Positions 45,486 to 53,370 are shown, counted from the first letter of the stretch. The stretch: 53,370 nucleotides of DNA from Acidobacteriota bacterium (GCA_027064125.1 JAMOQF010000065.1:1-53370); one strand, 5' to 3'. Notes: generated from the letters alone by a model not told the origin. Numbers and translations: made by a program.

Positions 45486-46965
45486 GTCTGTTTTACTTTT
45501 AATTTTGATATTATTTTCCTTTAGTTTTTCATTCCCAATTGTGGGAAAGGTCGTAAGTGATGGGGGAAAGTTTTTCTTTATAACCCAGAATAAGAGATAT
45601 GAAATTGGAATGTCAAGGTGGGATGCGGTAAAGTATGAGGGCCTGACCCTCGATGTGGAAGATCCGAAGATTTCAGGTGATAGAATTTTTTTCAGTAAAT
45701 ATAGAATTTTGAAAGATGCCTCTTTAAGTGGTCTTTCTTCCTCTTTTAAGGAGATATTGTCTGAGAAATTAAAGAAGATAGACCTTGATTTTAATGTATA
45801 TGTGGAAAAAAATTTCCTATATTTTTCACTGCTTGTAATAAATAGTTCGCAGGGTGCCATTAAGTTAAAATTTCCCTCTTCTCAGGAGGTTGACTTTGTT
45901 GTAATGGACTCTGAATTAAAAAAAACCATCTGGAGATGGTCCTGGGGAAAAAAATTTAAGGTTGGCTATGTAAATGAGATTTTGTTGCCAAAGGGGCAAC
46001 TTAGATTTTATGCCCGCTGGAATTTTGAAAAAAGTTATATTGAAGATGGAGAATATAAAGTTTTTGCTGAACTACACGCCCTTCCCCATGGTTTTATTTC
46101 AGAGGTGAAATCCATAATTTTAAAAACCCCTTCAACCTATTATGAAATAGAAGAGAGTTTTATTCCCCTTGGGGTAAATTATGTCTGGAAATATAGGGGG
46201 AAAGGTGGTGGGGAAATCTTAATGAGGGTGACTGGAACTTCAGAGATATCCGGCAGGAAATATTTTGTGGTGGATAATTTTCCAGATGGTAAAAATAGGG
46301 ATGGGAGTAGATTTATAAGATTTAATCCGGATGTTAAAAACTTTGTGGAGTATGTGTGTGGGGTGGGGGAAGTCCCCCTTTTTGGAGGGAAATTTAAGGT
46401 AATAGAGAGTGAGAAGGGGGGAGTGTATGAGTTCTTGAAATTTAATGGTAGGGGATGGAACAAAAAATATGAATTTAAAAGGGGTATAGGTATAGTTAAG
46501 GCCTTTTTAAGTGGAGATGTGTACAGACTTGAAAGTGTAGATTTTAATGTGGGAGAGTTTAAGAAAGGTACTGGTGAAAATGTATCTTCTGATGTCAATT
46601 ATAATTTATTTTTAAAGGAAGAGGGTGGGTATGAGAAAAAAGATGTCTACTATAGTTTATGGGGAAATGGCACCATTGTGGTCATGAAGGGGAATAGACT
46701 AATTTTTCAGGGAAGGATTAGAAGAGATAAATTCTTGGTTTTAATTAAAAAAATTTTTGAGATGGGATTTCTGGAATTAAAAGACTATTATGGTAAAAAC
46801 TCTGTCCCCTTTCCCCTTGTAGTTGAAATTGGAATTAGTGGAAAGAAGAAAAAAAGGGTTCTCGTTAAAACGAGTAAAAGTGACAAACCGCCCATTTCCT
46901 TCTGGGATATTCTTGATCTGATAAAAAAATTTATAAAAGAGGAAAGCGGATATAATGAAAAGTAA
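45478..46965 (+). CDS. Exported multidomain protein with BsuPI-like (proteinase inhibitor) domain
   Basis: GTG 45478 gives a signal peptide; FPSSQEVDFVV...IWRWS.GKKF resembles the BsuPI motif. Confidence 0.55.
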   Translation: MNRSVLLLILILFSFSFSFPIVGKVVSDGGKFFFITQNKRYEIGMSRWDAVKYEGLTLDVEDPKISGDRIFFSKYRILKDASLSGLSSSFKEILSEKLKKIDLDFNVYVEKNFLYFSLLVINSSQGAIKLKFPSSQEVDFVVMDSELKKTIWRWSWGKKFKVGYVNEILLPKGQLRFYARWNFEKSYIEDGEYKVFAELHALPHGFISEVKSIILKTPSTYYEIEESFIPLGVNYVWKYRGKGGGEILMRVTGTSEISGRKYFVVDNFPDGKNRDGSRFIRFNPDVKNFVEYVCGVGEVPLFGGKFKVIESEKGGVYEFLKFNGRGWNKKYEFKRGIGIVKAFLSGDVYRLESVDFNVGEFKKGTGENVSSDVNYNLFLKEEGGYEKKDVYYSLWGNGTIVVMKGNRLIFQGRIRRDKFLVLIKKIFEMGFLELKDYYGKNSVPFPLVVEIGISGKKKKRVLVKTSKSDKPPISFWDILDLIKKFIKEESGYNEK

Positions 46966-48004
46966 ATTTTTTCTTATCTCATTACTTTTCTTTTTCTTCT
47001 TTTTCCTGTTTTTAATGGGAAAGGAAAGAAAGGTCAGGGAGAAGATAGCAGTTGTTTCCATAAATGTGGTTGCCACAGATATGAAGGGAAGGCCCATTGG
47101 GAATTTGACGAGTGATGATTTTGAAGTATATGACAACGGTAAAAAGGTTCCCCTTATATTTTTTGAGAAAATTGCCATGCCAAGCAATATTGTCCTGATG
47201 GTCGATTCAAGTGGAAGTTCCTATAAGAGGATTTCAATTGTTAAAGAGAGCATAATAAATTTTCTGGATTCAATTTATCGGGAGAAACCTCAGGATAGGG
47301 TTGCGGTTGTAAATTTTAATGAGGATATAAATTTGCTTGCGGATTTTAAAACATCCCTTCTGGTTAAAAAGGCATTGATTCAAAATAGGATTTATGCAGG
47401 TGGGGCTACTGCCCTATATGATGCGATAGATCTTGTGAGTTCAGAGATACTTTCCAAGATTCCAGGAAGAAAAATAGTTATCATATATACTGACAGCATA
47501 GACAATGAGAGTATATTCCAATTTAAAGATATATTTAAAGAAGCCATTTCCACTGATGCCACATTTTATGTGGTTGTTGTTGATAACAGAAGGGAAGCCC
47601 TTAAAGATGCTGCAGAAAATTTTTATTCTTTAAGGAGAAAACATTATTATGAATATTTGATGTTTAAAAAGGGTATGAAATTAGATGGGATAAAACTTTT
47701 CTGGACTGAAGATATGAGAAATCAATACGATCCAAAGGATGTGCTTGATTTTATCTATAAACTTTCCTTTACGCGGCTTGCAAAACTTGCTGCATACAGT
47801 GGTGGTGAGATATTCAAGGTTAAAAATTACAATCAGATTTCCTCTGTCTATGGAATTATAGCATCGTCAATTCCCTATCACTATACCCTTGGATTTAAGC
47901 CAAATGTTGAGGGCTTAAAAAGGGGTACCTTTAGGAACATTAAGGTGGTTGTAAAGAGAAAGGGAGTCAACTTGAGATATAGAAAGGGGTATTTTGTAAG
48001 GTAA
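46955..48004 (+). CDS. VWA domain protein (Acidobacterial VWFA-related type)
   Basis: VVATD.KGRPI..L...DFEVYDNG, MIDAS DSSGS, TALYDAI, TD..DN.S, YTLGF, R.GY. Confidence 0.9.
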   Translation: MKSKFFLISLLFFFFFFLFLMGKERKVREKIAVVSINVVATDMKGRPIGNLTSDDFEVYDNGKKVPLIFFEKIAMPSNIVLMVDSSGSSYKRISIVKESIINFLDSIYREKPQDRVAVVNFNEDINLLADFKTSLLVKKALIQNRIYAGGATALYDAIDLVSSEILSKIPGRKIVIIYTDSIDNESIFQFKDIFKEAISTDATFYVVVVDNRREALKDAAENFYSLRRKHYYEYLMFKKGMKLDGIKLFWTEDMRNQYDPKDVLDFIYKLSFTRLAKLAAYSGGEIFKVKNYNQISSVYGIIASSIPYHYTLGFKPNVEGLKRGTFRNIKVVVKRKGVNLRYRKGYFVR

Positions 48005-48084
48005 TATGTAGAAAACTATCGAAAATTTTTAATTTCCACCTTTTTAAAACTATTTTTAGAAAATGATAATCTCCAGATTTTTTT

Positions 48085-48488
48085 TGCCTGGCACCAAATT
48101 TTCTTACCCGCCCCAGAAACCCTCTAAAGGTTTATAGGATGAAAAAGGAGTTTATTTAATCGTTGGTTTTGCCAGAAAAATTTTAAGTCATTTCCAGTTT
48201 TAGGTCTTTCTTTGCCCCCCAAAAGCCATTTAAATTTTTCCCAGACATTAAATTGACACTAAATTATTCTAAATCCTGAATTTTCAATTTTTCTCAATCT
48301 TTTCTATAAACCTATGGTTGTGCTTGTAGAGGATGAATTAGATTATTAGCCTGACACCTTTTCTCCTTTTCTTTTTATCTTCTTTTTATCCAGATCTTCC
48401 AGATCTTGCCTGACACTTTCCTTACCTCCAAATTCAAATCTCAATCCCAAAATCCCAAAATCTTAAATCTTAAATCGTGCCTGACACC
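48085..48488 (+). repeat. Cluster of four REP-like motifs (48085-48095, 48348-48358, 48407-48417, 48478-48488) with degenerate 7-mer tandem repeats at 48428-48476
   Basis: TGCCTGGCACC, AGCCTGACACC, TGCCTGACACT, TGCCTGACACC in a pyrimidine-rich non-coding region. Confidence 0.8.
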
Positions 48489-48503
48489 AATTTTAATCAA
48501 GTT

Positions 48504-48597
48504 CGAAATAGTAAATTTCCTTGACATAGGAATTTTCGGTTTTCTAAAATAAAATCAAATGAAAGCAAGGAGTTTTGAGAAAAAGGATTTTTGTTTT
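48504..48597 (+). repeat. Cassette head copy 1: promoter TTGACA(48521)-N18-TAAAAT(48545) plus leader codons
   Basis: AATTTCCTTGACA and CTAAAATAAAATCAAATGAAAGCAA identical in all three copies. Confidence 0.9.
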
Positions 48598-49206
48598 AAT
48601 CTGAGATTTCCAGGACAGTATTATGACAGTGAAACTGGGTTTTATTATAATTTTCATAGGTATTACAGTCTGGAGAGAGGGAGGTATTTGAGGGAGGATC
48701 CAAAATTCAGATATGTAAGTTATAATTATTCATATGGAAAAGATAATCCAATATCATGGATTGATTATGAAGGATTGTCAAGAATCTTTTTTAATGATTG
48801 TTCATGTGAAGAACGAAAAGAGATAAAGAAATTGTATAAGAAGGCAAGAGATATTGGATGTTCAAAATTGTCATCACTATCCAATATTTATCCAGAATTA
48901 AAGGAATGTGCATTGCATTTTTGTGAAGATACAAGAACAATAATGTTTAATTGTAAGGTTGAATGCAGAACCCCTTTAGCTTGTGCATGTTATGAAGATA
49001 AAGAAATACATTGGGTGAGGGAAAGAGTTCATATGAAAGGCTGTGTTCCAAAAATTCCTGCAATTGAAATAATGTTTCACGAGTTGACACATGTTTTGTG
49101 TGGTACTAATGATTATGCAGGTTCAGCTTTGGCTCCTGAAAGATTGTGGGATGCATGGTGGGCTCATCCAAAGAGACTTACCAAAATGGTGTTTGGCCAT
49201 AATTGA
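48559..49206 (+). CDS. Mini RHS toxin 1: leader + RHS core end + Cys-rich HExxH metallopeptidase-like C-terminal domain
   Basis: NLRFPGQYYDSETGFYYNFHRYY, REDP...NPISWIDYEGL, HELTH. Confidence 0.85.
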   Translation: MKARSFEKKDFCFNLRFPGQYYDSETGFYYNFHRYYSLERGRYLREDPKFRYVSYNYSYGKDNPISWIDYEGLSRIFFNDCSCEERKEIKKLYKKARDIGCSKLSSLSNIYPELKECALHFCEDTRTIMFNCKVECRTPLACACYEDKEIHWVRERVHMKGCVPKIPAIEIMFHELTHVLCGTNDYAGSALAPERLWDAWWAHPKRLTKMVFGHN

Positions 49207-49217
49207 GGTGTTTTTCA

Positions 49218-49874
49218 ATGTTTAAAAAATTTAAGCGAAAATTTTTAATGTTTTTAATAGTGTGTGCCTTATCTATTTTTTCCTTTATGCTTATATATTA
49301 TTCTGAAATTACCTATAGGGAAAATAAGGTAATAAATGATGTAGTGATTTCTCTTATCCATAATGTCATAAAGAATATGAGAAATAGGAGGAAAATTCCC
49401 TATTATAAGTTGATACCTTCTTATCCATCCATAGGGATTCCACCCGATTATTATAGATTGATTGAAACTAAGAGAAGGATAAATAATTTAATAGATAACA
49501 GAAAAGTTGTCATTGTTGTGAAATCAGGAAGATATAGTTTAAGTTTGCCGGATAAAATAGATGGGTATAAGATATTTCAGGTAAGATCATTTGATAAGAT
49601 ATTGGATGAGAAGTGGCGGTGGATTGAAGAAAATAAATCAATTGGAAAGGATTCATTAGGCTATTATGGCTTACAGTATATTTATTTTACTAAGAAGCCT
49701 TATCTTTTGATGGAAGTAAAAGATGTAATCTTTTTTAAAGGTGGTTGTGTTGTATCTGTTTTTTTTAATACAGGTATAGATGATGTTACCTATTTGGTAA
49801 GAATTTATATGATAAAAAGTAGTGGTAGGTGGATTGTTGGGAGGACAAAAATAAGATATTTATCGAAGTTTTGA
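49218..49874 (+). CDS. Putative immunity protein 1 (N-terminal membrane anchor, extracytoplasmic domain)
   Basis: Directly follows toxin; GAGGTG RBS before ATG 49218; single TM helix. Confidence 0.6.
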   Translation: MFKKFKRKFLMFLIVCALSIFSFMLIYYSEITYRENKVINDVVISLIHNVIKNMRNRRKIPYYKLIPSYPSIGIPPDYYRLIETKRRINNLIDNRKVVIVVKSGRYSLSLPDKIDGYKIFQVRSFDKILDEKWRWIEENKSIGKDSLGYYGLQYIYFTKKPYLLMEVKDVIFFKGGCVVSVFFNTGIDDVTYLVRIYMIKSSGRWIVGRTKIRYLSKF

Positions 49875-49907
49875 TTAAAAAAAGAGGAATGTTTCTGCCC
49901 AGAGACT

Positions 49908-50037
49908 ACATAAAGAGTGAAGTGGTGCCAGGCAAAAAAAGAAAGTATAGAAATTTCCTTGACAGAAATTTTTAAGATTTCCTAAAATAAAATCAAATGA
50001 AAGCAAGAAGAATTGAGAGAGAAAATTTTTATTTTTT
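49908..50037 (+). repeat. Cassette head copy 2: inverted REP-like motif (49924-49934), TTGACA(49959)-N18-TAAAAT(49983), leader codons
   Basis: Homologous to copies 1 and 3. Confidence 0.9.
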
Positions 50038-50758
50038 ATCTATTGTATGTTTTCACCATATGGAATATGGTAATGGAAACAGATATTACTACATAAACGA
50101 TCACTTATTTACACCACAAAAGATGATTGACACATCAGGCAACACAGTCTGGCAGGCGGATTGGGATAGTTTTGGAACACTCACTGTAACCATAAACACA
50201 GTTGAGAACAACCTGAGATTTCCAGGACAGTATTATGACAGTGAGACAGGGTTTTATTATAATTTTCATAGATACTACATGCCAGAGATAGGGAGGTATT
50301 TGAGGGAGGATGAGGTAAGGGATAAATGGGATTTTAATCTGTATGTGTATGTGGGGGATAGGCCGGTTGATTCTATAGATTTTACAGGATTAGAGGAAGA
50401 TAATGGAGAAAATAACGGTTCTTCAGGATATGAGAAGTGTGTGGAAATTTGCAGGAACTATTATAGAAGAGAAGTAGAAAAATGTAGAGAAGATTTAACC
50501 AGATGCAGTATTTGGTATACTGGTGCCATAATAATTTTTAGTGTAACAAGTGCCTTTGCCACGGAAGGGGGAAGTATGTTAGTAGAGGGTGGTTTAGCAG
50601 CTAATACCCTTAGAGGGATGTTAATTCGTAGGGGAGGGTATATAATAGGAGGGTTTGGATTTTGGTGTTATTATGGTTGGTGGGGTTGTAATAGGACAGC
50701 GTGGGAGCACTATAAAAAGTGCGTATGTGATTGTAAGAATGCTTTTGGTGGAAAATAA
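49997..50758 (+). CDS. Mini RHS toxin 2: leader + longer RHS core remnant + Cys-laddered hydrophobic hairpin C-terminal domain
   Basis: YYYINDHLFTP...VWQADWDSFG, NLRFPGQYYD, PVDSIDFTGL. Confidence 0.88.
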   Translation: MKARRIERENFYFLSIVCFHHMEYGNGNRYYYINDHLFTPQKMIDTSGNTVWQADWDSFGTLTVTINTVENNLRFPGQYYDSETGFYYNFHRYYMPEIGRYLREDEVRDKWDFNLYVYVGDRPVDSIDFTGLEEDNGENNGSSGYEKCVEICRNYYRREVEKCREDLTRCSIWYTGAIIIFSVTSAFATEGGSMLVEGGLAANTLRGMLIRRGGYIIGGFGFWCYYGWWGCNRTAWEHYKKCVCDCKNAFGGK

Positions 50759-50778
50759 AAATCAGGAGAAGTTTTAGA

Positions 50779-51852
50779 GTGAAGTGGATTGAGATATTTT
50801 CAGGTTTAAAGTGGGATAGGATTGATTTATTAATTAGGAATATAGCATTACTTCTTCTTCCTTTTGTTGGGATTACTTTTTTTACTTCTTTTGAGAGTGG
50901 TGAAACATCGATTTTAGAGATTACTGGTTACGTAATATATGGAATATCTTTTGTGGGGATAATCACCTTGAGTTGGGGATATATATATGCTGTTGGTTGT
51001 GGGAGCAAGGAGTGTTTACACGAGAAGGTGAGGAAGGTTTTATCTGTTTTTGATGTTTTTCCAATGGTGGTGGTTTTTTCTTTTTTGATAGGGAAGAGGT
51101 TTTTAATGGGAAGGGGAGAGTTGGAAGTTGAGCAATTGAGGAGTATTGTAAGTTTGATTGAGGTAAAAAGAGACTTTATTTTTTTTCTTTTTCCTTTCCA
51201 GTGTATGTTTATTTACGGTGGTTTTGTTTTTGTTTGGGGAATTATAATGGTGAAATTTTGTAGATTGAGGGAGTTAATTAGGAGAAGATTGATTTTATTT
51301 TCTTATTTTTTTACGCTTTTAATATTTATGTTATTACTTTTTGTAATGATTTTTCCAAGTATTATCAGGAGTGAGGAAATGAATTATATTAGATATTTTG
51401 TGTTTTTTCTTTTTTTTCTGGTAAACATTTCTGGGTGGGGGTATTTATATAAACTTACATATAAAGAAGAGAAAGAAATAATGGAAAGGGAAGATGAATA
51501 TAGGATGTTGCATCTGGTAGCGGTGTGGATTATCCAGTCAGTTTCATCTATTTTAGCGAGTATAGTTTTTTTAACTAAAGAAGAATTGGTTTGGAGGTTG
51601 GTGTGTCAGCCTGGGACGCCCCCTGAGGTAATTCATATTGATGACATTTATATTTTTATCATTTATTTAATAGTATTTTTCCTTTTTTGGTTGATTATTG
51701 CCTTTAAGTGGATGTGGGAAATTATTCCTCCTTCTGAATTTGAAAAAAGAATAGAATATTTAAAAGAATCTCCTGAACTCAAGCGTAAGGAAATATTTTT
51801 ATCTTTTGCTTTAAATTTGGTTTTTTTGATTGCAGTATACTTATGGATTTAA
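50779..51852 (+). CDS. Putative immunity protein 2 (polytopic membrane protein)
   Basis: About 9 hydrophobic segments; CAGGAG RBS; follows toxin 2. Confidence 0.6.
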   Translation: MKWIEIFSGLKWDRIDLLIRNIALLLLPFVGITFFTSFESGETSILEITGYVIYGISFVGIITLSWGYIYAVGCGSKECLHEKVRKVLSVFDVFPMVVVFSFLIGKRFLMGRGELEVEQLRSIVSLIEVKRDFIFFLFPFQCMFIYGGFVFVWGIIMVKFCRLRELIRRRLILFSYFFTLLIFMLLLFVMIFPSIIRSEEMNYIRYFVFFLFFLVNISGWGYLYKLTYKEEKEIMEREDEYRMLHLVAVWIIQSVSSILASIVFLTKEELVWRLVCQPGTPPEVIHIDDIYIFIIYLIVFFLFWLIIAFKWMWEIIPPSEFEKRIEYLKESPELKRKEIFLSFALNLVFLIAVYLWI

Positions 51853-51898
51853 GTTTTGTTTTGTGTTGTATTTATGAGGGATCTGAAATATACGTTTA

Positions 51899-52038
51899 GC
51901 ATAAGAGTGTCTAAAACAAATGCCAGGCAGAAAATTTTCCACGAAATAGTGAATTTCCTTGACAGAGATTTTTCCCGTTTTCTAAAATAAAATCAAATGA
52001 AAGCAATGAATTTAGAAAGAGAAAATTTTGGTTTTTTA
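51899..52038 (+). repeat. Cassette head copy 3: partial inverted motif TGCCAGGCA (51921-51929), TTGACA(51959)-N18-TAAAAT(51983), leader codons
   Basis: Homologous to copies 1 and 2. Confidence 0.9.
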
Positions 52039-52392
52039 AATGTTTTTTATGTTAAAGATAATCCGGTGATGGGATATGACAATAAAGGACTTGTTCCAGA
52101 TTGGTGTAAGTGTAAAAAAGGAAGAAATGAGTGGATGGAAAATTGTTTAAGGTCTTGTAATAGTAATGGTTTTAGTTATAGTCAAGGAATTTTTTTTTCA
52201 GCGCTGTGTAGTGCTGTTTCAGGTGCTGTTGGAGGTGGATTTATAATTGGAGGTATTTCCGGAGTTCTATGTAATCCACAATTTTGGTGTTTTCTTGTGT
52301 GTAATGAGGAGGAGAGAAAAATATGTGAACCAGAGATACCATCTTATTTACCTAATCTTGGGCCTGGATGGGAAGCAGGACCCATATATTAA
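51997..52392 (+). CDS. Mini RHS toxin 3: leader + only the terminal RHS motif + Cys/Gly-rich hydrophobic hairpin
   Basis: YVKDNPVMGYDNKGL is an RHS core-terminal NPxxxxDxxGL motif; bacteriocin-like tip. Confidence 0.75.
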   Translation: MKAMNLERENFGFLNVFYVKDNPVMGYDNKGLVPDWCKCKKGRNEWMENCLRSCNSNGFSYSQGIFFSALCSAVSGAVGGGFIIGGISGVLCNPQFWCFLVCNEEERKICEPEIPSYLPNLGPGWEAGPIY

Positions 52393-52400
52393 TATGAGGA

Positions 52401-53276
52401 ATGTGTCTTTTTAGCAGGTGGAAAATGAGATGTTTTATTTTTGAAGGAATATTCTCAGAGTTAAAAGCAGGTGAAATGGAGAATCCTGTTGGAAGATTTT
52501 TTGGGATTTTTTTCAGTTTTCTTTTTTTATATTTTTTTGTTTCTGATTATGTGAAAGGAATATCAGACGCAAGGATAGATGTAAATTTGGGTATTTTTTT
52601 GTTTTTTTTAAGATATATTTTGTATGATACATATATGCGTTATTTTTTACATGGGAGAAGAAAAGGAAATATTCAGGATATATTTAGCCATTTGGAAGAA
52701 TTGATCATGCTCTATTTAAAAAAAAGAAGAGATATATATAAACGTTGTAAGAAAGTCTGGTTGATTTATTTTTGTATATTTTGTGTTGTAAATGGAATTA
52801 TGTTAATTTTTGTATATTTTGATAATAAACTCTCCTTTTTTCATTTTGGTATAGAGGAGTACTTTAGTTTTGATAAAGGGATTAATAGTGTTAGGTATTT
52901 CCTTATCATTTTAAGTATATATGAGTTTTCGGTATGTATTAATATATTAAATGCAGTAAAGTTTTTAAGATGTTTAAAAAGATATGTAATAGGTGTTGGG
53001 GAATCTGATGATTTTGAAAGTAAGGTAATAATGGAGATTTTAGTCAATAGAGAGATGTTTATTTTATATTTTTTCGAGTATTTTGTTTTATTTTTTGTTT
53101 TTCTTTACAGCCCCCGGGTGGGGGTATGGCTTTTTGTATTGTATTTTTATGTTTTAGGATTAATTATAGTTAGAGATGTTTTGAATTTAAATAGATTTTT
53201 GGAGAAAAAGGAAAATTATCAGTCTTTGATGGATAGGTTAAAAAAGGTAGAAGGTGAGATCATTGCCAGCAGTTAA
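52401..53276 (+). CDS. Putative immunity protein 3 (polytopic membrane protein)
   Basis: About 6 hydrophobic segments; follows toxin 3; very low GC. Confidence 0.6.
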   Translation: MCLFSRWKMRCFIFEGIFSELKAGEMENPVGRFFGIFFSFLFLYFFVSDYVKGISDARIDVNLGIFLFFLRYILYDTYMRYFLHGRRKGNIQDIFSHLEELIMLYLKKRRDIYKRCKKVWLIYFCIFCVVNGIMLIFVYFDNKLSFFHFGIEEYFSFDKGINSVRYFLIILSIYEFSVCINILNAVKFLRCLKRYVIGVGESDDFESKVIMEILVNREMFILYFFEYFVLFFVFLYSPRVGVWLFVLYFYVLGLIIVRDVLNLNRFLEKKENYQSLMDRLKKVEGEIIASS

Positions 53277-53370
53277 TTTTAATAAGTAGTTTTGAAAAAA
53301 AGGATTTTTGGTGTCCATTTAAGTGCTGGCTGGAGGAAAGGACTTTATGTGAGGAGCCTGATTTATTCTG

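Follow-up and report, generated by a model that had tools for sequence, protein, structure and literature searches.

An array of RHS-derived putative toxin–immunity cassettes with promoter-like heads of their own in an acidobacterial genome in which no full-length rhs gene was found

The window analysed here is a 53,370-nt stretch that constitutes the complete contig C65 of an Acidobacteriota assembly (GCA_027064125.1, JAMOQF010000065.1; here G000; 2.58 Mb in 222 contigs, 94% complete, 33.7% GC). Its last part holds three co-directional gene pairs, in each of which a toxin-like open reading frame (ORF) carrying a remnant of the rearrangement hotspot (RHS) core comes first and an immunity-like ORF second. 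In front of each toxin ORF lies a head, by which we mean promoter-like DNA together with the ATG and a leader, and we refer to the pairs whose heads have their ATG at 48559, 49997 and 51997 as cassettes 1, 2 and 3. Current understanding treats Rhs toxins as cargo that is enclosed in a cocoon and either fired by a type VI secretion system (T6SS) or exported through Sec, and takes orphan tips for silent spares or for by-products of immunity hoarding. In agreement with an earlier reading of this DNA (the original prediction), each module on C65 possesses a promoter-like site and a start codon of its own in a genome that yielded no full-length rhs, PAAR or T6SS sheath gene, nor did any turn up in G001, its congener and the sole other genome of the genus (82% complete, 470 contigs).

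All features of the array lie on the plus strand. Head 1 (48478..48558, non-coding) contains a −35 hexamer TTGACA at 48521-48526, an 18-nt spacer and a −10 hexamer TAAAAT at 48545-48550, followed by 8 nt to the ATG without a Shine–Dalgarno sequence. It leads toxin 1 (48559..49206, 215 aa), in which a 13-aa leader is joined at NLRFPGQ to an RHS core that extends to IDYEGL (residues 14-73) and then to a tip with 12 Cys and a HELTH motif at residue 174. Immunity-like gene 1 (49218..49874, 218 aa) has a GAGGTG Shine–Dalgarno sequence overlapping the toxin 1 stop codon. Head 2 (49916..49996, non-coding; TGCCAGGCA word, −35 at 49959-49964, −10 at 49983-49988, 8 nt to the ATG) leads toxin 2 (49997..50758, 253 aa), whose 21-aa leader is joined before YYYINDHLFTPQ to a stretch made up of the final YD hairpins and RHS core (residues 22-132), with an acidic/Gly linker and a Gly-rich hydrophobic tip with 10 Cys behind them. 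Immunity-like gene 2 (50779..51852, 357 aa) has AGGAG 10 nt upstream of a GTG start. Head 3 (51916..51996, non-coding; TGCCAGGCA word, −35 at 51959-51964, −10 at 51983-51988, 8 nt to the ATG) leads toxin 3 (51997..52392, 131 aa), in which the leader is joined straight to the last core motif YVKDNPVMGYDNKGL and the tip contains 9 Cys and a glycine-zipper-like segment (residues 72-89). Immunity-like gene 3 (52425..53276) encodes 283 aa from the ATG at 52425, or 291 aa if translation begins at 52401. One membrane span (N-terminal) is predicted in immunity protein 1, about 8 in immunity protein 2 and about 5 in immunity protein 3, and the toxin stop codons lie 11–32 nt upstream of the immunity starts. 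The array is truncated by the contig end, C65 finishing inside it.

The three heads form a direct repeat of 109 nt (48514-48622, 49952-50060 and 51952-52060; 67–77% identity), which bears out the proposal that the three pairs share one head. A TTGACA-N18-TAAAAT site, matching 11 of 12 positions of the sigma-70 consensus, was located in each (48521-48550, 49959-49988 and 51959-51988), followed every time by AAAATCAA and then ATGAAAGCAA. Translation likewise confirmed related leaders (MKARSFEKKDFCF, MKARRIERENFYFL and MKAMNLERENFGFL in cassettes 1–3) that enter the RHS sequence at a different point in each cassette, always in frame. Against a curated cut-off of 32.5 bits, the RHS repeat-associated core profile TIGR03696 scored 53.8 bits in cassette 1 and 71 bits in cassette 2; cassette 3, which retains only the last 15 core residues, gave no family match in the profile search. 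In all there are 10 such matches in G000. The core retained in the cassettes ends, before the tip, at a boundary of the P-x4-D-P-x-G-L kind.

The heads on C65 belong to a larger family. The head search was done on the DNA pattern and was blind to reading frame. The exact 55-nt head pattern gave 4 forward matches in G000 compared with none in a reversed control, and a looser search raised the number of real copies to 11; two further regular-expression matches (C80 and C215), with 4 mismatches each and no ATG, were dropped from the count. Five more heads came from three further contigs of one metagenome (L037, L043 and L044 are the loci named among them), giving 16 heads; the five remaining contigs of the metagenome scan are identical to G000 contigs, are not independent and were excluded. 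The genome-wide search proposed with the original prediction therefore did recover more cassettes. The same leaders also occur in database proteins of other sources (P0002-P0004, P0067 and P0082). No known RNA element was found in the heads.

Three junction types account for most of the family. In type A (8 heads, including cassette 2) a 21-aa leader is followed by ME(Y/D)G.GNRYYYINDH; in type B (3 heads, including cassette 1) MKAxSFEKKDFCF is joined to NLRFPGQ; and in type C (3 heads, including cassette 3 and found also on L037 and L043) MKAxNLERxNFGFxNV is joined to FYV(K/E)DNPVMG. The other two are a type-B leader fused to the last ~35 residues of a toxin (C182a) and a degenerate solo head (C54) that reads MKAGG and then stops. 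Thus 14 of the 16 heads are in frame with an RHS-toxin ORF, one with a toxin tail and one is degenerate. None is out of frame; many out-of-frame copies had been named beforehand as something that would speak against the cassettes. Nine of the heads lead ORFs that are complete through the tip, and five more reach the contig end without a stop. Another such situation, heads in front of unrelated genes, is not general: the solo head at C54:937-993 (TTGATA ... TAAAAC) does precede a non-RHS gene, and it is the only one of the 16 with no RHS or toxin sequence after it.

Each junction type precedes different toxin tips, and one Gly-rich tip family stands behind type A (C171b and P0004, the latter by reading of the sequences), type B (L044a) and type C (L043a). 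Because the types recur before different tips, they are old head variants that were inherited and recombined with tips rather than three fresh deletions. The calculation that three in-frame junctions would arise by chance about 1 time in 27 falls with this, since the junctions are not three independent events. Its conclusion, that translation of the RHS remnant is under selection, does appear to hold, with the frame-blind census as better evidence and ratios of nonsynonymous to synonymous substitution rates (dN/dS) of 0.06–0.13, as detailed below. By eye, microhomology at the type B junction amounts to 0–1 nt, the toxin-tail fusion uses GATTTTTG, which is common to the leader (KDF) and the toxin (EDF), and the type C junction may use TATGTGG. 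The fusion in C182a destroys the toxin in frame and keeps the immunity gene, so that selection may in part favour translation that continues to the immunity gene rather than the toxin itself.

Among 41 genomes searched, G001 was the only other one with a DNA match. Its RHS parts match, and its heads are too diverged for BLAST; a pattern search found TTGACA-N18-TAAAAT-GTAAGyAA-ATGAAAG twice, with the same geometry and a different spacer sequence, and a third, more diverged head (TTGATA-N16-TATAAA-GTAAG-ATGAAAG) precedes a 313-aa ORF on G001 C182. The G001 leader MKVSKNFY meets the YD repeats ~130 residues further upstream. One head-bearing RHS ORF of G001 (C7, loci L026 and L033; L026 1401-2162, minus strand; P0026, 253 aa) drops out of the RHS frame behind RYYMPEIG, and the cassette has probably been frameshifted and is decaying. 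In another acidobacterium, G031, no shared head was found upstream of the 4 short RHS ORFs inspected, which come from ten G031 loci.

The geometry of the heads is unusual. The −10 hexamer ends 8 nt upstream of the ATG, and these 8 nt (AAAATCAA) contain no Shine–Dalgarno sequence; such sequences (GAGGTG, AGGAG or AGGTGG) precede the immunity genes and are absent from the toxin ORFs. Given this short distance and the missing ribosome-binding sequence, transcription is predicted to start at or adjacent to the AUG and to give a leaderless mRNA. Genome-wide, the same promoter pattern lies mostly 27–34 nt before the ATG of ORFs of at least 100 aa. This clustering indicates that the pattern marks real promoters and that the heads form an unusual class: at 5–9 nt from an ORF start there are 7 head sites (at 8 nt) and 8 non-head sites in the whole genome. 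Over the 16 heads, conservation reaches 99% in the −35, 99% in the −10 and 96% in the 8 nt before the ATG, against 79% in the spacer, and conserved hexamers at a conserved spacing around an unconserved spacer are what would be expected of a working promoter. We rate autonomous expression of the cassettes as likely. In type A, codons 1-13 of the leader have a dS of 0.28 and a dN/dS of 0.61, and we infer that the leader is mainly a start region conserved as nucleic acid. The usual 5′ untranslated region here is ~20–27 nt, and whether or not the precursors are active the heads make a compact test case for leaderless translation in the phylum.

Two further sequence features were seen in and around the heads. 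An internal promoter-like ATGACA-N17-TATAAT (11/12) occurs at 48623-48651 and 50235-50263, within the YDSETGFYYNF codons of the RHS core; AT-rich codons may have produced it incidentally, or it may correspond to the internal Rhs promoter reported in Salmonella. A genome-wide word, GGTGCCAGGCA / GGTGTCAGGCA and its complement, is found in AT-rich intergenic DNA and lies ~40 nt upstream of the −35 in most heads; in the window it occurs at 48087, 48351, 48409, 48480, 49927 and 51923, and also at 50, 7780 and 12798. In the 2.58 Mb, TGCCWGGCA was counted 135 times, GCCTGACAC 165 times and GTGTCAGGC 157 times, where ~2 occurrences are expected for one such 9-mer (TGCCAGGCA).

The RHS remnant behind the leader seems to be maintained as protein. 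Over 34 core codons in 11 paralogues (55 pairs) the median dN/dS is 0.06 at a mean dS of 0.96, and over the whole remnant within type A (7 copies, 21 pairs) dN/dS is 0.13 at a dS of 0.77. The truncating junction is common to the seven type-A copies through shared ancestry, and the latter value therefore means that constraint acted on the remnant as a protein after truncation and not as DNA kept for homologous exchange. When residues 25-132 of cassette 2 are compared with solved Rhs cores, they match the final ~106 residues (E values of 4e-21 to 1e-7 with bacterial Rhs chains and down to 1e-3 with Tc/teneurin-like ones) and stop precisely where the cleaved chains 8cp6_B and 8h8a_A have their C-terminus. 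Cassette 2 D105, D128 and L132 align with D1141 and D1164, the catalytic residues, and L1168, the cleavage site, of Tse5, in which mutation of D1141 or D1164 is reported to abolish cleavage after L1168 (PMC10684867). In a 92-sequence alignment, D105 is invariant and D128 at least 90% conserved. The aspartates are 22–23 residues apart (23 in cassette 2, as in Tse5), so that of the autoprotease motif DPxG-X18/19-DPxG both aspartates are kept in place and both prolines are substituted.

The tips contain 4.0–6.9% Cys, against a background of 0.88% in the long ORFs of the window, and fall into at least 8 families in G000. Tip 1 and immunity-like gene 1 have no Pfam or NCBIfam match, and a phmmer search with tip 1 against 1.84 billion representatives returned only itself and one weak match; among the other tips, only C171a matches a family (DUF3750). 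Tip 1 was considered as a zinc-peptidase, and with all Atlas leads below 0.9 it was left at HExxH protein. When the soluble part of immunity 1 was co-folded with tip 1, the score was 0.00, which was obtained without controls and counts neither way. The Gly-rich hydrophobic segments of tips 2 and 3 suggest that these act on the membrane.

Tips and immunity genes appear to travel as modules, a variable tip with its putative cognate immunity gene directly downstream being exchanged through the core. Four tip families each keep their own downstream gene family wherever they are present, including pairs across G000 and G001 and the fusion C182a, whose immunity gene shares 30% identity with that of the intact L037 toxin. 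Tips of one family remain intact at 31–63% identity between paralogues and between both genomes. C53 and L044 are ~98% identical through the upstream gene and the head; 120–200 nt into the ORF they part, and each continues with a tip and an immunity gene of its own. This is a module swap with the crossover in the core remnant. Separately, the toxin at the end of C167 and the 5′-open toxin at the start of C29 are 97% identical over 73 tip residues, and the two contigs may be strain variants or the two parts of one locus, a single cassette between ordinary genes.

The arrays on C65, C167 and C181 begin directly beside ordinary genes, with no rhs upstream. On C65 the five preceding genes encode an M17 peptidase, an unknown protein, a UPF0047 protein, a BsuPI-domain protein and a VWA protein, the last (46955-48004) identified by profile and separated from the first head by a non-coding spacer (48005..48477) with copies of the GCCTGRCAC / TGCCWGGCA word. 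Copies, or end pieces, of a single multi-copy gene, with EYIIELKHLKGKNGEDKELVEKARKEGIDQLKRYASS in common, lie at the distal ends of two arrays (C171:7393-7623 and C53:1-477), and a possibly related gene (C54:2-814) adjoins the solo head.

No shell or delivery machinery was found. Profile searches of G000 gave 0 matches for PF05593, PF25023, PAAR, VipB/TssC, phage sheath and C39 peptidase; PF05593 is an insensitive shell test, as it also scored 0 in G001 despite evident YD repeats there. The full-length rhs gene with this N-terminus that the original prediction proposed to look for was sought throughout G000 and in G001 and did not turn up. A tblastn search of G000 with the 387-aa YD-repeat fragment of G001 returned nothing N-terminal of its residue 106, and a 1,079-aa RHS query (P0121) matched G000 only at residues 798-955 and G001 only at 685-989. 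RHS queries thus recovered only the last ~150 (G000) or ~260 (G001) core residues, leaving at most 1–2 YD hairpins; none of the 10 core matches in G000 lies in a frame longer than 315 aa, and of the 8 in G001 the 6 that were listed stay within 387 aa. Neither a YD-repeat β-cocoon of many hundred residues nor a recognisable N-terminal trafficking domain (PAAR, VgrG link, Sec signal and the like) was found in the C65 cassettes or in G000, and the leader measures only 13–21 aa. RHS frames reach 5,728 aa in genomes of the same order, and three of these genomes, of high GC (G002, G003 and G004; loci L055, L056 and L057), encode RHS-core proteins of 5,208–5,611 aa with classical N-terminal signal peptides, for which reason the giant RHS proteins look Sec-exported rather than linked to PAAR or a T6SS.

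It could be that the cassettes are an ordinary orphan reservoir, awaiting recombination onto a full-length rhs gene that both assemblies happen to miss. RHS genes assemble poorly, G000 and G001 are in 222 and 470 contigs, one G001 RHS frame (387 aa) is open at a contig end, and relatives in the same order have full-length RHS genes with shorter frames trailing them. On the other hand, three array starts adjoin ordinary genes, and in a set of 5.8 billion proteins no protein of 679–2,000 aa exceeded 46% identity to the RHS part of this lineage. Between 212 and 678 aa, four proteins, all of 253–376 aa, were 80–90% identical, G000-type cassettes 59–72% and others at most 49% among the matches listed. 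Moreover, at an inter-copy dS of ~0.8–1, homologous exchange with a single master gene would find little identical DNA, and silent spares need no dedicated promoter and ATG. We consider such a reservoir very improbable.

The leaders offer no evident route out of the cell. Signal peptides follow a scheme of a positive n-region, an uncharged h-region of at least 6–7 residues and a lipobox or A-x-A site. The hydrophobic run of the leaders comprises at most 9 residues and follows acidic residues; in type A (..K-E-N-F-C-F-L-F-I-G-C), two charged residues, K8 and E9, occupy positions where a PROSITE-type lipobox rule allows no charge, and types B and C retain little of the hydrophobic stretch. A short Sec signal in the type-A leader is nevertheless conceivable. 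The original prediction had derived the leader from the 5′ end of a Sec-exported rhs gene, which the data do not favour: homology to RHS begins only at codon 22, and the leader is unlike the Leu/Ala-rich signal peptides of the same-order RHS proteins. Three other origins or functions were considered and set aside. A double-glycine bacteriocin leader, suggested by the G-C after the hydrophobic stretch, has its hydrophobic positions off the usual pattern, and G000 has no C39 peptidase match; a cargo signal for an extracellular contractile injection system would go with a sheath gene, and none was found in G000; and a relic of upstream RHS sequence is at odds with DNA homology to RHS that begins only at nt 63 of the type-A ORF.

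With no export signal recognised and no secretion system found in the searches of G000, and with the toxin preceding immunity in the operon, the cassettes could instead be intracellular modules resembling toxin–antitoxin (TA) or addiction systems, in which a toxin is made and neutralised within its producer and the cassettes are selfish or growth-regulating; internally promoted Rhs-CT/RhsI pairs of Salmonella (CT, C-terminal toxin region) provide a precedent (PMC7043789). The tips and their partners argue otherwise. Tips are 4–7% Cys against the 0.88% background, and all three immunity proteins are membrane proteins, one of them with a single N-terminal anchor, so that action at the membrane or outside the cytoplasm is more likely than a cytoplasmic target or a cytoplasmic TA role. 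In addition, a 2.6-Mb genome with at least 8 tip families that are shuffled behind one shared arm shows the pattern of an interbacterial arms race. A purely intracellular role thus seems unlikely to us.

We lean slightly towards reading the cassettes as autonomous, RHS-derived polymorphic toxin/immunity operons that were reduced from rhs loci and arrayed and shuffled by recombination. In this working model, the sigma-70-type promoter TTGACA-N18-TAAAAT would fire ~7–8 nt before the ATG and produce a leaderless mRNA. The first ORF would encode a small toxin precursor, consisting of a 13–21-aa leader, 15 to ~110 residues of the C-terminal RHS plug and a variable Cys-rich tip, and the second, with its own Shine–Dalgarno sequence, the membrane immunity protein. 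In types A and B the retained plug would still cleave the tip off after D-x-x-G-L, and the tips would act at the membrane or in the periplasm. The conserved head and core would also serve as a homology arm, through which recombination swaps tip/immunity modules and stacks them into arrays at three or more places in the chromosome. The components of the model differ in strength. The anatomy, the family, purifying selection on the remnant, co-variation of tip and immunity gene and the module swap can be read directly from the sequences. Because no RHS shell or T6SS was found in the genus, the classical travel route does not seem open to the toxins, and their export for antagonism is close to evenly balanced, with the balance just on the negative side. 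We regard as doubtful, from the sequences at hand, the more specific possibility that the C-terminal RHS plug works alone, plug and tip forming a self-cleaving pro-toxin made from a leaderless mRNA that reaches competitors without cocoon, PAAR or T6SS.

Several observations weigh against the reading as reduced toxin operons. Neither DPxG motif has kept its proline (EDEV or EDPK; D-F/Y/N-x-G), several copies carry N, E, D or F behind the last Gly, and type C is without the first aspartate; self-cleavage may have been lost. AlphaFold gave toxin 2 a pLDDT of 39.7 from the single sequence and its N-terminal 135 aa a pLDDT of 58.3 from the 92-sequence alignment, with confidence only at the YD hairpins (residues 21-70) and values below 50 in the plug. 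No export signal was recognised in the leaders, which failed the lipobox rule and have a hydrophobic stretch of at most 9 residues. A full-length rhs gene could have escaped assembly, because both assemblies are incomplete and fragmented (G000, 94%, 222 contigs; G001, 82%, 470) and arrays break contigs. Finally, the arrays contain decay products: the in-frame fusion of leader and toxin tail in C182a; toxin-less immunity pairs that recur on C29, C171 and C182; and the head-less toxin remnants C205, C171:2257-2754 and the end of C65. The last of these (53284..53370, plus strand) has neither promoter nor ATG and places a type-B leader fragment (SSFEKKDF) in frame with the last residues of an L037-type toxin (WCPFKCWLEERTLCEEPDLF) before it exits the contig; it is 95% identical over 85 nt to C182:6702-6618, and the complete toxin is present on L037.

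These decay products also fit an immunity-driven reading. The array would then be an immunity island, its heads kept to drive membrane immunity genes against the RHS toxins of neighbours, and the toxin ORFs would be tolerated relics held in frame for coupling or polarity. The absence of delivery machinery from the searches in the genus agrees with this, as do C182a, which combines the leader with the last ~35 toxin residues and retains the cognate immunity gene, the recurrent toxin-less pairs and the 11–32 nt between toxin stops and immunity starts. There is support from other systems as well: orphan cdiI is described as expressed, and most orphan CT fragments as lacking start signals (PMC3150448), and orphan immunity arrays are reported to protect Bacteroidales (10.1101/471110). 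Set against it is the RHS remnant, which is useless for immunity and yet has a dN/dS of 0.13 in the truncated type A. Nine of 16 heads lead ORFs complete through the tip, with 5 more open at contig ends, tips of one family are intact at 31–63% identity between paralogues and genomes, and one tip family is found at full length behind head types A, B and C. On this evidence we judge immunity alone an improbable explanation, and we retain the reduced toxin operons as the working interpretation.

The genus seems to have dropped the cocoon and yet kept at least 8 tip families under near-consensus promoters, together with a plug of ~100 residues under purifying selection. If the precursors are active, the plug would function independently of the shell, a non-classical release route would exist and the numerous short RHS-core ORFs of metagenomes would call for reinterpretation; if the plug indeed acted alone, the cassettes would represent a new, shell-less class of polymorphic toxin. 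Short metagenomic ORFs carrying an RHS repeat-associated core (213 proteins, 139–443 aa, E≤0.001) would then not all be dead orphans. If the precursors are inactive, the locus would still be a clear case, found in nature, of retention driven by immunity and accompanied by promoter duplication. A limited literature search found no description of promoter-bearing, shell-less RHS cassettes.

Among known systems, orphan rhs-CT/rhsI modules are reportedly arrayed downstream of full-length genes, a description attributed to Koskiniemi and colleagues in 2014. As in orphan rhs-CT/rhsI and cdiA-CT/cdiI, the loci described here consist of tandem tip/immunity pairs with a core piece that ends in a demarcating motif before each tip; likewise, modules are exchanged by recombination in the core piece and decayed or toxin-less members occur in the same arrays. 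The cassettes nevertheless fail two defining features of orphan Rhs-CT/RhsI modules, the place behind a full-length gene and the lack of start signals. No full-length gene was found upstream or anywhere in the two genomes of the genus, and the arrays occupy at least three sites adjoining ordinary genes. Described orphan modules 'generally lack translation initiation signals' (Poole et al. 2011, PMC3150448), whereas 14 of the 16 heads here supply an 11/12 promoter match and an in-frame ATG; a head-less minority (C205, C171:2257-2754 and C65:53284-53370) does resemble classical orphans.

The rAID-1 arrays of Bacteroidales (Ross et al., 10.1101/471110) are similar in their co-directional immunity genes, repetitive intergenic sequence and AT-rich DNA, and their hosts need not own the matching toxins. 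They are defined there by a 5′ XerD-like recombinase, which is not among the five genes upstream of the C65 array (the only array profiled), and most cassettes here, unlike rAID-1, keep a complete toxin ORF. Toxin 2 aligns with Tse5 of Pseudomonas aeruginosa and the other solved T6SS Rhs effectors (8cp6, 8h8a and 7q97) over the last ~106 residues, in which both aspartates and the cleavage leucine are kept; unlike in Tse5, whose CT is described as a pore-forming toxin (PMC10684867), ~1,000 cocoon residues, the N-terminal plug and the PAAR/VgrG link are absent and the DPxG prolines are replaced. In Salmonella Typhimurium, internal P2 promoters and a CTG start express main and orphan Rhs-CT toxins that behave as type II TA loci, and P2 reportedly precedes at least 50 Rhs toxins (Starsta et al. 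2020, PMC7043789). There the promoter and the weak CTG lie inside a full-length or orphan rhs frame in a bacterium with a deliverable main Rhs and a T6SS, whereas here the promoter is intergenic, the ATG is placed for a predicted leaderless mRNA, the delivery part is gone from the assembly and the tips look extracytoplasmic. In both cases a promoter just upstream of the tip would give rise to a short protein of core and tip, and an immunity protein, without the delivery part, and these internally promoted Rhs-CT toxins of Salmonella are the nearest precedent for the cassettes reported here.

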